Sequence record: OZ035771.1
Reading direction: 5' to 3' (one strand)
Length of the DNA: 64,000 nt
Source: Phapecoctavirus DIJ07P2
The position numbers and the translations under genes were made by a program. Below, one piece after another: positions 1 to 3,774 of the stretch. The notes beneath the pieces were generated by a model that was given only the letters and a program-made list of their open reading frames with translations, had not been told where the DNA came from and did no database searches. Position 1 is the first letter of the stretch, and each line of letters opens with the position of its first letter.

Positions 1-681
1 AGCTTCTAAGTTATTCTTTAAGTTTGGTGTTTCGACATAACTTATGTTACCACCATTGCTAATCTGTGCAAAACCTGCTTCATAATCCCATTTTTCAAAA
101 GGATTTGTTACCAACCATACAGGTTGGTGAAAAGAGTTGGTAAGATAATCTCTTTCTACCAAACCTGGGTATTTTTCATTTAAAGCTGTTGCAAACTTAT
201 AGCACAAGGATTCTGCTGGAGTTCCATAAAGACTAAACGCCAAATTAGATCGTTCTTTAAACACAGCACACACATCTTTCATATGTTGCAGAATGCTTTT
301 ACCAAGTTCCTTTTTATCTTTTTCTTCTGGATAAAGGATTTCCAAAGCTTCGGCAAGACCTACATAACCAATACTAATAGAAGCATAACCACCTTCAAAC
401 AAAACACCAATTTCATCATTGGCATTTAAACGCGCTAAAGCCCCTTCCATGAAAAGAATAGGGTTTTCAGATGCTTTGGTATGCCTAATACGGTTTACAC
501 GTAACATGTGAGCATCGTAGGCTATCTCCATATGTTTATTAAGGAGGTCGGTGAAAGATTCTCCTTTACTTCTCGCTTCCGCAGCAATCAGAGGTAAATT
601 GATAGAAACTACTCCAAGGTTGAATCGTCCATCATATTTTTCTCCTTGCTCTGTTGCATAGTATGACAAGAAACTTCTACA
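1..681 (-). CDS. nrdD: Anaerobic ribonucleoside-triphosphate reductase NrdD, exon 2 (3' part; continues beyond window start)
   Basis: Minus-strand translation from 681 downward reads CRSFLSYATEQGEKYDGRFNLGVVSINLPLIAAEA ... GGNISYVETPNLKNNLEA with no stop before position 1; collinear with class III RNR as recalled from T4 NrdD. Confidence 0.85.
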
Positions 682-1451
682 CATTATGTTCAAAGTGGCT
701 CGCAAGGCCACTCCCGCACCATTACGTGCTGCTGCATGTCACCATGCAGATCAGACTATATCTTCATGCTTAAAGCATGTCTACCATTTGGGGTGTCATA
801 GGCTTACACCCTACGCTGCTACATTCATCACAGCTAGTCGTTAGGCATTTCGTAACAGAACTCATAATCATAATTATTTGGTGCTCCTTGCTTTAAGATT
901 GCAGATATTCTTTTTCTGTCCAACCCTAAAGCGTCAGCACAACATCTCAGACTTTTAAAGTAAAAAACTTCACCAGTAGCCTTATGAGTAGCTTTTACAC
1001 TGTGACACCTTGTGTAGAAAGCATAACAGTTATTATCGTAACCCTCTTGCGTGTTGTCTGGACAAGATCCCCACTCAAGATTGTATACACTGTTGTCTTT
1101 CCTATTGTCACCTTTATGCTTCACATAAGGTAAATTGTCTGGATTGGGTAAAAACGCTTCAGCTACAAGTCTGTGCACCCGAAAGCAAACAGTTTTCTTG
1201 TTTTTACGTATTCTGACAAGTTGGTATCCTGTGTTTATTTCTTCCCACGAGCGAAGGATTCTTTCATCCTTATACCTGGTACAATAAACATTTCCAAGCT
1301 CGTCAATTTCATACCCTTCAAAATCACGAATTTGTTTTCTCATATCAGTACCCCCTTCTTCTGTGTTGGGAGTTCTGTTACGTTTAGCACGGGATTGTCT
1401 CTGTTGAGAGTTCCCCCGTTTAGGCAGATTTTACATGAGCAGTTATAGTTT
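682..1451 (-). mobile_element. Group-I-like self-splicing intron interrupting nrdD, carrying an HNH homing endonuclease ORF
   Basis: nrdD reading frame breaks after ...TSMG (last exon codon GGT, ends in U) and resumes at CRSFL; intervening 770 nt begins with in-frame stop, contains core-like sequence CTAAACGGGGGAAC...AGACAATCCCGTGCTAAA and ends in ...AACATAATG (terminal G) before exon 2. Confidence 0.75.
834..1343 (-). CDS. HNH homing endonuclease (intron-encoded)
   Basis: 169 aa; GYEIDELGNVY N-terminal motif and HRLVAEAFLPNP...NLEWGS HNH-type motif; lies wholly inside the nrdD intron. Confidence 0.8.
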   Translation of the reverse strand: MRKQIRDFEGYEIDELGNVYCTRYKDERILRSWEEINTGYQLVRIRKNKKTVCFRVHRLVAEAFLPNPDNLPYVKHKGDNRKDNSVYNLEWGSCPDNTQEGYDNNCYAFYTRCHSVKATHKATGEVFYFKSLRCCADALGLDRKRISAILKQGAPNNYDYEFCYEMPND

Positions 1452-2324
1452 ACCCATACTCGTAACGGTACCATCTGCTGATCCCGTAACTTCTTTGTTC
1501 AAAGGGACAGAAATAAAATCTGGATAAATACGATCAGCACAACATGCCAAAGCTTGTTGCTTAAGGTCGTAGTTAGGATCACTAGGTTTCATGTTAACAC
1601 CTTCTTGTAAAAAGAAAATAACTTTAGGGAATACAGGCGTTACATGATCTTTGCCTAGACCGTTACTATGCACTTTAAGATAGTTAGCTGTGATCATTCT
1701 GCCAAAAACAGAGGTATCCAGACCCATACTGATTGTAATAAAAGGAGATTGTCCATTAACACTCATTAAAGTGTTAACCTGATACAAAAGAGTTTGCATA
1801 GCGTCATATACATCTTGTTCGGTCATTTCTAGGGCTTCTTTCCTTGCATAACAACCGTAGCGACGTTTGGTTATCTCCATGTTTTTAAGGAAACTGGCTT
1901 CAACATAAGGACTAAGACCTTTATCAATGTGCGCACACGTCTGACCTCCATACTGACTGGAGGCAACAGCTTGAATGATTTGAGTTAGCACTGTAGTAGC
2001 TACTCCAATAGATTTTGGTTTTTCTATCTGTGCAGCACCGATCTTAAAACCATTCTCTAACATATCTTGATAATTAACAAGACAACAGTTTGTAAGAGGA
2101 GAGAGTAGGTAATCCAAGTCGTGAATATGTCCAAAACCTTCTGTATGCCATTCTGACAAGTTTTTTGGCAGTATCTGTGTCATTGCCATATGTTTGCTTA
2201 AAATCCCCGCCAAGAGATCTCTATGCGTGTTAACGAGGTGGGAAGGTTTGTTTGCATTCTCTCTAGTGTATGTTTCTGAAGTGCGATCTAAAAAAGAAAA
2301 AACATCTTGGTACAAATCTTTCAT
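1452..2324 (-). CDS. nrdD: Anaerobic ribonucleoside-triphosphate reductase NrdD, exon 1
   Basis: N-terminal part RENANKPSHLVNTHRDLLAGILSKH...HIHDLD...NCCLVNYQDMLENGFKIGAAQIEKPKSIGVAT typical of class III RNR; track ORF 1443-2324 terminates in intron-encoded KL-stop. Confidence 0.88.
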
Positions 2325-2427
2325 TATTAATCCTTATTTTGTGAGTAGAACTATTATTCTACCTCTTCCAACCGAAAAAAGCTTTGAGGGAAATCAAAAA
2401 AGGCGCAAAGTGCGCCTTTAAGTTTTA

Positions 2428-3774
2428 TCATTTGGAGAGGAATTGTCTTCCCATGATCTTACCGTTCTTCACAGCAGTCCCATCGTGTCCATTGTAATCC
2501 CAGGTTCCATCGATATTACGCAAGAAGCTATCACGAACAGTATAGGCTTTACCGTTCTCTACTTTACTTTCTTCCACAATGATTGCCATAACAAGCTTAT
2601 TTTCAATTTCGGTAGTAACCGATTCTTTGATACCCTCTGTAACTTCACGATCATATTGGATATAAACTCGCTCCTCGGTTACTTGCACGTCTACCACATT
2701 TTTAAATGTGTAGGTCTGTTGCGTAGTGTAGAGGACACGAACGACACTCTTCTTACCTACTGGCGGCTTCTGACGACGCTTGCGGTAACGTGGAGACGGG
2801 TTAAGTTTAATATAACCTACAATATCTGATCCATCTCCAGAGTGGCTCCAATACAACGTCTCTGCCAACAAACCTTTTCCTTGGTCCCCATTTCGAAAAA
2901 GAACATTAACAGGACCATCACAAGGGCGTCTACCTCCGATGTGGGCTTGGTATTTTGCTGTTCTTGGGAGAACAAAATATTCTTCAATCTGCCATTCACT
3001 ATCGTATTTCTCCCATTCAAAGTGGTTGGCTTTACATACTTCTAAAACACCATTTTTGTAACGGACTTGAACAAAGTCTTCACAAGGTTGAATACCTGTA
3101 TTAGGAATATAGGTAGGCTCTGTGTCTTCTGGTTCAAAAGTCTCTTTTTGTTGTTCCACATCTTCCACTTTTCTTACATGCTTAGTATAAAACATATCTT
3201 TAAACTCCTGTGCTTCAACCTCAACTGCAAATTCATGTTCTCTGACAGCCGGAGGCACAAGGCTTCCACACTCAAGATGTAGAGCATCCAGACCTGCCAT
3301 TTTATCGTAAAAGATAACTTTTCGATACTTCTTACCGTCTTCTGGAATAGCAGGGTCTACTCGTTTAAGACGGGAAGCATCGCTTTTAGTCCAAAAACTC
3401 TTCCCTGTTGTATTATTGAAAGTAGTAATCATTTCTTCAATTTCTTCTTCAGAAAGGTTACTAGTGTCTGTGTAAACATCTTCAATTTTTAGCGTTTTAG
3501 TTTTCTTAAAAATTAAATCTAGCATTGCATCTCCTGTAAAACGTAGTTCATTATCTCCTACTGTCGGCTCTCCAGTAAATTCATCGGTCCCAACTGTGTG
3601 ACAGATGTATGGAAAATTTGTGCAACCGTGTAAAAGAGCATATTGTCCTGTAAGTTTAGGATCTGTCTCTTTAGTCCAACCATATGCAATCTCAATAGCT
3701 TTGCAAAGCCTATCAAACAAGCCACGATTGTTTGCCGCTGTTACCAAATCCTGTTTATGTGCATATACATTCAT
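2428..3774 (-). CDS. Hypothetical protein (448 aa)
   Basis: Long ORF in operon orientation with nrdD; no motif recognised by eye. Confidence 0.6.
   Translation of the reverse strand: MNVYAHKQDLVTAANNRGLFDRLCKAIEIAYGWTKETDPKLTGQYALLHGCTNFPYICHTVGTDEFTGEPTVGDNELRFTGDAMLDLIFKKTKTLKIEDVYTDTSNLSEEEIEEMITTFNNTTGKSFWTKSDASRLKRVDPAIPEDGKKYRKVIFYDKMAGLDALHLECGSLVPPAVREHEFAVEVEAQEFKDMFYTKHVRKVEDVEQQKETFEPEDTEPTYIPNTGIQPCEDFVQVRYKNGVLEVCKANHFEWEKYDSEWQIEEYFVLPRTAKYQAHIGGRRPCDGPVNVLFRNGDQGKGLLAETLYWSHSGDGSDIVGYIKLNPSPRYRKRRQKPPVGKKSVVRVLYTTQQTYTFKNVVDVQVTEERVYIQYDREVTEGIKESVTTEIENKLVMAIIVEESKVENGKAYTVRDSFLRNIDGTWDYNGHDGTAVKNGKIMGRQFLSK

Follow-up and report, generated by a model that had tools for sequence, protein, structure and literature searches.

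What does the interruption of nrdD mean in the genome of Phapecoctavirus DIJ07P2 (sequence record OZ035771.1): are two partial proteins made from a broken gene, or is the intervening sequence removed from the transcript? The stretch of DNA analysed here, referred to as the window, is 64,000 nt long and the interrupted gene lies at its beginning. An earlier note on this DNA had read the interruption as a group-I-like intron with an HNH endonuclease ORF. We compared the locus with filled and empty nrdD sites of other phages, modelled the fold of the insert and followed its distribution among related phages.

Boundaries of the insert and its site in nrdD

The frame of exon 1 extends in the ORF list from 2324 to 1443 on the minus strand, stopping three codons past the exon end, and the sequence of exon 2 on the same strand, CRSFLSYYATEQ..., is open from its first base and continues without a stop off the window start (Table 1). 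The minus-strand location of the gene was absent from the earlier note. ESCO13, an intron-less Phapecoctavirus, carries an uninterrupted nrdD of 604 aa (...ACGAGTATGGGT followed directly by TGTCGT...), as do most relatives. Comparison with this empty site revealed an insert of exactly 770 nt; alternative boundaries failed to restore the empty site, and the sister phages without the intron have GGT followed by TGY with nothing intervening. Exon 1 was collinear with ESCO13 nrdD, and both exons were open and shared 95-99% identity with intact genes lacking the intron. The Pfam NRDD profile matched exon 1 with its positions 1-263 (E=7e-69) and exon 2 with positions 264-486, and no profile position was lost or duplicated between 263 and 264, indicating that the exon pieces abut exactly in the family profile. 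In Escherichia phage nepoznato, which is 98.8% identical to the window over this region, exon 2 is 942 nt long. The earlier note had exon 1 ending in GGU, exon 2 restarting in frame at CRSFL, a continuous NrdD formed by the two, and an insert of 770 nt with a terminal G; each of these held to the base, the terminal G being G682, as fixed by the empty-site comparison, and the preceding exon base being U.

Table 1. Features of the nrdD locus (all on the minus strand; coordinates are those of the window)
Feature	Position	Strand	Remarks
nrdD exon 1	1452..2324	(-)	291 codons, Met1-Gly291; ends ...AGT ATG GGT (RNA AUGGGU)
Predicted group I intron, subgroup IA2	682..1451	(-)	770 nt; after exon U1452; omega-G at 682
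nrdD exon 2, first 227 codons	1..681	(-)	from Cys292; 3' end beyond the window start
Putative co-converted tract	649..681	(-)	Justusliebigvirus-type; exon 2 +1..+33
P1	1435..1457	(-)	exon AUGGGU 1457..1452 with guide GCUCAU 1440..1435; U.G wobble at the 5' splice site
Candidate P10 guide strand, CUAUA	1444..1448	(-)	pairs with exon 2 UGUAG 681..677 (first five bases); read from sequence
P3, 5' strand, UCUGCC	1423..1428	(-)	partner GGUAGA 785..780; 4/6 pairs compensatory, 100% paired
P4 (ACGGGG/UCCCGU) around P5 (UCUC/GAGA)	1389..1419	(-)	covariation and RNAfold
P6a, 5' strand, CGUAACAGAACUC	1370..1382	(-)	13 bp with 863..851 (GAGUUCUGUUACG), perfect complement
P7, 5' strand, GACUA	835..839	(-)	partner UAGUC 758..754; pseudoknot with P3; guanosine-binding helix
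P7.1 (815-834) and P7.2 (791-811)	791..834	(-)	compensatory 4/5 and 4/6; also RNAfold
P8 hairpin, CAUGCU-UUA-AGCAUG	765..779	(-)	5/6 pairs compensatory; also RNAfold
P9 (732-749, GUGA tetraloop), P9.1 (716-729), P9.2 (694-712)	694..749	(-)	covariation and RNAfold
HNH homing endonuclease ORF, I-HmuI-like	834..1343	(-)	169 aa; in the P6a loop
Hairpin ACUCCC...GGGGGU	1350..1373	(-)	predicted to sequester the Shine-Dalgarno of the ORF; extended stem covers the AUG

The insertion is in phase 0, between codons Gly291 and Cys292. A stretch of 100 aa over the junction aligned with residues 258-359 of T4 NrdD (PDB 1H78 and others, E=7e-18), with the Gly-Cys pair falling on G289 and C290. The junction, which the earlier note had placed in a conserved NrdD segment, thus breaks the M-G-C finger-loop motif between G and C, within the barrel core. 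C290 of T4 NrdD we take, by that residue number, to be the finger-loop cysteine that bears the thiyl radical. The intron sits at the codon that is best conserved in the enzyme, and homing introns typically insert where the coding sequence of an enzyme is under the strongest constraint (PMC2988022).

Inteins too occur commonly in ribonucleotide reductase genes, with catalytic residues and the neighborhood of Cys as frequent sites (PMC3653736), a preference that speaks for an intein or another protein-level insertion at this place. This explanation is ruled out: the exon 1 frame stops 9 nt into the insert, and the 169-aa ORF, with a start and a stop codon of its own, is fused to neither exon. 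A Pfam search gave no match to a Hint domain.

Alternatively, nrdD may be a split gene that is not spliced, the insert being a free-standing HNH cassette and the two NrdD products reassembling, as do the products of Aeromonas phage Aeh1 nrdA, which is split by mobE (PMC3653736). This precedent counts in its favor, as do the records of nepoznato, VEcB and SYGMH1, which list two NrdD CDSs together with a hypothetical protein or endonuclease, and the stop that follows exon 1 after three extra codons. Furthermore, within 24 nt of its 3' end the insert contains in-frame TTG and ATG codons with an upstream GGAG, for which the phi92 record gives an RBS and a CDS. However, a joined CDS, 'spliced variant', is annotated in the phi92 record as well, P9.1/P9.2 contain the putative RBS and start, and a break inside the M-G-C finger-loop in the barrel core is a poor site for a two-piece enzyme. 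Further evidence against an unspliced split gene comes from the RNA fold.

Fold of the insert

To the covariation analysis we brought homologues at the same nrdD site from Justusliebigvirus VEcB, phiWec187, pEC-M2929-1AR.1 and phi92, Vequintavirus SYGMH1, Avunavirus 19-1-2, Felixounavirus ph2-2 and Vibrio phage F89, and homologues at the T4-type site from T4 and Mosigvirus G2285. The alignment comprised nine distinct cores with the P6a loop masked, P6a itself standing outside the column test. Across 63 modelled pairs in 12 helices, 97.1% of the cells were paired and 32 pairs carried changes on both sides, i.e. compensatory changes. None of 500 shuffles reached the observed covariation values, and when the 3' partners were slid by 1-3 columns pairing was 32-46%, with 1-6 compensatory pairs. 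The core helices P3-P8 were 94-100% paired in the nine homologues (15 of 29 pairs compensatory), and P3, P5, P7.1, P7.2, P8 and P9.2 had three to five compensatory pairs apiece. Folding of a natural ORF-less allele of 290 nt by RNAfold (minimum free energy, z=-2.83) predicted all nested helices of the model, namely P3, P4, P5, P6, P6a, P7.1, P7.2, P8, P9, P9.1 and P9.2. The secondary-structure modelling that the earlier note had called for thus recovered a group I fold with P1 and P3-P9.2, including the P3/P7 pseudoknot, with covariation support.

P1 was formed by six of six pairs in all nine homologues, with the U.G pair at the splice site invariant (9/9). P2 is absent, P3 beginning 6 nt past P1, and P6 consists of GC/GC. 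P6a closes the 506-nt loop that holds the ORF and is predicted by RNAfold in the ORF-deleted allele as well; its stems differ by lineage and are all perfectly paired (CGGU/ACCG, CAGC/GCUG, GAUGUA/UACAUC, CAAAGUAUU/AAUACUUUG). P7 of 19-1-2 reads GACCA/UGGUC, the sole compensatory pair in this helix. The extra hairpins P7.1 and P7.2, positioned between P7 and the 3' strand of P3, indicate subgroup IA2, to which the T4-type phage introns belong. The 3' tail of the intron terminates in G.

P10 was read by eye in three lineages and not scored by alignment column, because MAFFT does not align the guide strands of the lineages with one another. Equivalents of the window pairing were CUCUAUA/UGUAGAG in ph2-2 and GGCA/UGCC in Vibrio phage F89, which co-vary. 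Against the window P10 it counts that it has 5 bp only and that 3 nt lie between it and P1. A search by eye for P10 in the T4 intron gave none that was convincing.

Searching with the Rfam group I model (RF00028), we obtained 70.4 and 70.6 bits for the ORF-less alleles, the core of which is 99% identical to that of the window, 79.8 bits for 19-1-2 and 105.3 bits for the T4 intron, the gathering score being 50. The covariance-model search that the earlier note had proposed gave a divided answer for the window copy itself. At a permissive threshold Intron_gpI matched 732..971 (-) with 39.7 bits and E=2.3e-8, placing the core-like element of that note in this region, and at Rfam gathering thresholds no match was obtained in the whole window, so that the window copy was missed. 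In the permissive alignment the 3' half was good and the 5' half was wrongly put inside the ORF. The sub-threshold score counts formally as a miss for the window copy; it is probably due to the inability of the model to bridge the 532 nt between the P6 strands and not to a defective core. The E-value-threshold scan of the window found only the nrdD locus, hence no second recognisable group I intron, and the extra matches in a search for the J8/7-P7 core motif were at chance level only.

Together, the covariation, the ORF-less alleles above the Rfam threshold and an ORF of I-HmuI type strongly support the assignment of the insert, by comparison of sequences, to the group I introns, subgroup IA2, in line with the group-I-like reading of the earlier note; agreement with the elements listed there is far beyond chance. 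A split gene that is not spliced would leave unexplained the 12 helices kept by compensatory change in about 260 nt of non-coding flanks, as well as ORF-deleted alleles that keep a complete ribozyme, and we regard it as extremely improbable.

The endonuclease ORF and movement of the intron among phages

The 169-aa HNH ORF of the earlier note was found full-length and of I-HmuI type. It aligned end-to-end with I-HmuI (PDB 1U3E; residues 3-166 versus 4-172, E=8.7e-9), with H76, N88 and N97 on I-HmuI H75, N87 and N96, and matched PHROG 59 (HNH endonuclease) with E=3.8e-34. Pfam HNH_3 was just under its cut-off (22.0 versus 24.8), and the C-terminal NUMOD-like domain PF22083 scored 25.4 bits against a cut-off of 27, with PHROG 3855 (HTH) matching at E=2.6e-4. 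As in I-HmuI, which comes from a phage group I intron as well (DNA polymerase intron of Bacillus phage SPO1) and has 174 aa, an N-terminal domain, an HNH motif and, in the window ORF as a candidate, a C-terminal helix-turn-helix/NUMOD-like domain follow one another collinearly. The two proteins differ in their target genes, their identity is low, and a caveat is that Lys75 takes the position of I-HmuI Asp74, a metal ligand.

Comparison with the copy of SYGMH1 (Vequintavirus) showed 79 nucleotide differences and a dN/dS of 0.044, indicating strong purifying selection on the ORF. A 50% identical ORF occupies this loop in the intron that Vibrio phage F89 has at the corresponding site, and both ORFs end in ...EMPND. 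The last 10 codons of the ORF and its stop double as the 3' strands of P6a and P6, J6/7 and the 5' strand of P7, the stop codon UAG (836..834) overlapping the latter. Given that T4 has this core sequence without any ORF, the ORF has extended into the core.

Upstream of the ORF, the hairpin predicted to sequester the Shine-Dalgarno (-14.2 kcal/mol, z=-3.8) has a compensatory counterpart in SYGMH1 (stem ACUCCU/AGGAGU). The buried ribosome-binding site suggests that translation of the endonuclease is probably limited to a subset of transcripts or folding states, by analogy with the ORFs of T4 introns, which are known to be translationally restricted. A scan of 500-2500 for sigma-70 promoters and terminators gave nothing above shuffle inside the intron (8 sites versus 5.0 +/- 2.1), so that no separate endonuclease promoter can be claimed.

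In the phage collection, the intron was also covered in only 10 of the 303 records matching this nrdD region, and empty, ORF-less and ORF-containing alleles were seen across three genera. Justusliebigvirus has ORF-containing introns of 770 nt, ORF-less introns of 279 nt (phi92 type, deletion across CTG microhomology) and 290 nt (pEC-M2929 type), and empty sites side by side. The two ORF deletions are independent and P6a is spared in both. Filled and empty alleles are both present in Vequintavirus as well. Of the 770 intron positions, 4 separate the window from Justusliebigvirus VEcB (99.5-99.7% identity), whereas the exons are ~75% identical, a figure taken from ungapped comparison using only the bins nearer the junction because indels break the register (30-60% identity beyond ~240 nt in several pairs).

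Differences around the junction were unevenly distributed. Exon 2 of the window has in +1..+33 ten synonymous differences from intron-less Phapecoctavirus and is identical to Justusliebigvirus there, and by +39 it is Phapecoctavirus sequence again. In exon 1 the native sequence reaches the junction: going upstream, the first mismatch to ESCO13 is at -55 and that to VEcB already at -7. Likewise, Vequintavirus navn (with intron) and rV5 (empty) are identical over 100 nt upstream and differ at 16 positions in +3..+35, including two amino-acid changes, with one more difference up to +100. Filled and empty Justusliebigvirus sites differ only at +3, +4 and +6 (TGC CGT to TGT AGA), changes that create the P10 pairing UGUAG/CUAUA. 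From this pattern of sequence differences we concluded that the window phage probably acquired its intron recently from a Justusliebigvirus-type donor. Furthermore, the two co-conversion tracts point to an endonuclease that may act in exon 2 no farther than about 35 nt from the junction. With a break within ~35 nt, this stretch would lie between it and the insertion site and would necessarily be co-converted. The proposed place of action, up to about 35 nt downstream, would distinguish the window enzyme from I-HmuI, which nicks one strand near the insertion site.

It is conceivable that the element has decayed, an inactive ribozyme or endonuclease leaving either an nrdD pseudogene or an intron that splices and is no longer mobile. 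Loss would be tolerable since the anaerobic ribonucleotide reductase is dispensable in many phages, the endonuclease gene is often lost, as judged by the frequent ORF-deleted alleles in relatives, and Lys stands at the Asp74 position. However, all helices are intact and the window core matches those of several independently isolated phages at 99-100% identity; both exons have stayed open and close to the intact intron-less genes; and the full-length ORF combines its low dN/dS with a genus boundary crossed with only 4 substitutions. A decayed element is therefore very unlikely.

We consider it highly probable that the insert is a mobile self-splicing IA2 group I intron in nrdD, that it homes by means of the HNH enzyme encoded in P6a, and that it originates from a Justusliebigvirus-type phage. 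The steps of splicing are proposed from structure and homology. Transcription of nrdD would continue through the insert, and the RNA would adopt the P3-P9 core. P1 would then form between the guide GCUCAU and the AUGGGU that ends exon 1, external guanosine would attack after U1452, and CUAUA would align the 3' exon by pairing with UGUAG of exon 2 (P10). Ligation of the exons after G682 would yield an mRNA for a single NrdD of ~604 aa, with the predicted junction ...AGUAUGGGU joined to UGUAGAAGU..., 770 nt shorter than the genomic DNA. For homing, the evidence is comparative and the biochemistry is deduced from it: in a mixed infection the endonuclease would nick or cut an intron-less nrdD some 35 nt or less into exon 2, and recombinational repair would copy the intron together with a stretch of exon 2 into the recipient.

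Relation to known introns and to existing annotation

The closest characterised relative is the intron of T4 nrdD (sunY), which self-splices; it is 1033 nt long and recorded as a group IA intron encoding I-TevII. It interrupts the same gene and has an identical guide, GCUCAU, and like the window intron it has no P2, has P7.1/P7.2 and P9.1/P9.2, and ends in a similar 3' tail. The alignment of the two runs through the guide, P3-P9, P9.2 and the 3' tail, with 72% identity over the aligned core and the stretch GCUCAUGUAAAAUCUGCCUAAA identical. Their sites differ: the T4 intron lies after ...AFQAYE, with the 5' exon AUGAGU, ~110 codons upstream of the site in the window, and the Gly-Cys site of T4 (G289 and C290) is empty, CCGATGGGT being followed by TGCCGT. 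Their endonucleases also differ, since T4 carries the GIY-YIG ORF of I-TevII between P9 and P9.2, whereas the window has its HNH ORF in the P6a loop. The shared guide and core indicate one ribozyme lineage at two nrdD sites, colonised by two unrelated endonuclease genes.

The 5' exon hexamers of the two sites, AUGAGU (T4-type) and AUGGGU (window), are one base apart, with the pairing kept. It is possible, though we hold it to be rather doubtful, that an ORF-less core moved between the nrdD sites by guide-directed reverse splicing and that endonucleases later colonised each site; if true, phages would here have preserved a natural record of transposition by reverse splicing. AUGRGU occurs by chance about once per gene, and there could be other reasons for retention of the guide.

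At the Gly-Cys site itself, phi92 (Justusliebigvirus) has essentially the same ribozyme, with a joined CDS annotated; its copy is 279 nt with the endonuclease ORF deleted, whereas the window copy, in another genus, has the full 770 nt. Other phage ribonucleotide reductase introns resemble that of the window in carrying HNH genes, with their host genes and sites being different: the introns of Twort nrdE and the RB3 nrdB intron all lie beside functionally critical residues (PMC1865063, PMC3653736). The RB3 intron encodes I-TevIII, which differs from the window ORF in being a larger, dimeric, double-strand-cutting HNH enzyme (PMC1865063).

Phage ribonucleotide reductase group I introns with homing endonucleases, that of T4 nrdD included, are textbook knowledge, and a general survey covers such elements (PMC3653736). 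Already known, too, is the ORF-less allele at the Gly-Cys site, which the phi92 record marks as a 'spliced variant'. Our search of the literature yielded no paper describing a group I intron at the nrdD Gly-Cys site; nrdD of Felix O1-like phages is reported as split and 'interrupted by a homing endonuclease' (PMC4837284). The records nearest to the window, those of nepoznato and nieznany, have no intron annotated. Instead of one presumably spliced gene and a homing endonuclease, these records, VEcB, SYGMH1 and many others present two NrdD fragments and a hypothetical protein, a probable misannotation that is repeated in Phapecoctavirus, Justusliebigvirus, Vequintavirus, Avunavirus, Felixounavirus and a Vibrio phage.

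The finding leaves the existing knowledge of group I introns unchanged. It provides a full natural series of the homing cycle, with empty and ORF-containing sites, two independent ORF deletions, cross-genus transfer and a sharply bounded co-conversion tract, which makes a good, if unsurprising, worked example. Since this series predicts where the HNH enzyme would act, the nrdD intron may offer a convenient coliphage system for an enzyme of the I-HmuI type.

Intron modules and further interruptions of nrdD

The 3' end of the 770-nt group I intron in nrdD, comprising hairpins P9.1 and P9.2 and the tail, was found to resemble part of the terminase-gene intron of rV5, a vequintavirus whose own nrdD site is empty (see table). 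Unannotated stretches of Klebsiella phage IME184, phage kvi and Shigella phage JK32 match the same segment at 77-83% identity. Introns in different genes seem to share peripheral modules.

In relatives, nrdD carries further interruptions. In Escherichia phage 19-1-2 (Avunavirus) the intron at the Gly/Cys site is followed further downstream by a second split of the gene. This second gap contains the group I core motifs CTAACGACTA ... GATATAGTCT and is probably a second, different intron; it gave no Rfam match at the gathering threshold. nrdD of Vibrio phage F89 is interrupted twice, each insert carrying an HNH endonuclease ORF, and the second insert is a homologue of the intron studied here, occupying the same site.

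Positions of the features discussed
Feature	Sequence	Position	Gene or context	Identity
Intron 3' end	window	682-762 (-)	nrdD	85% to the rV5 counterpart
rV5 counterpart	DQ832317	58834-58913	terminase large subunit gene	85%
Second split, phage 19-1-2	OK181860	about 1942-2300	nrdD
First insert, phage F89	g2, OZ195773	210-1368	nrdD
Second insert, phage F89	g2, OZ195773	1873-2691	nrdD
Second AUGGGU	window	1722-1727 (-)	nrdD exon 1, ..ISMG/LD..
Hairpin	window	2399-2419
Upstream gene	window	2428-3774 (-)	448-aa protein

Annotation of neighbouring genes and of related records

The stretch that separates the start of nrdD from its upstream neighbour contains a GC-rich hairpin with a perfect 9-bp stem, followed by T-runs on both strands, which looks like a terminator. 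The protein encoded by this upstream gene is named 'ribonucleotide reductase' in the RefSeq entries of nepoznato, a near-identical phapecoctavirus, and of the intron-less ESCO13, at odds with the accompanying note in both, which calls it a hypothetical protein; the name may have been transferred from the adjoining gene.

With 600-nt nrdD probes, many of the GenBank MG0656xx 'Campylobacter phage' records that are labelled as Campylobacter jejuni phages showed 91-99% identity to E. coli Stephanstirmvirinae and Vequintavirinae, a likeness that extends to the intron alleles, and their Campylobacter host labels look doubtful.

A second guide-matching hexamer in exon 1

Another copy of AUGGGU, the hexamer at the end of exon 1 that pairs with the intron guide sequence GCUCAU, is present within exon 1. 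It would likewise pair with the guide, and the site is unoccupied, which is relevant to the choice of intron insertion site.
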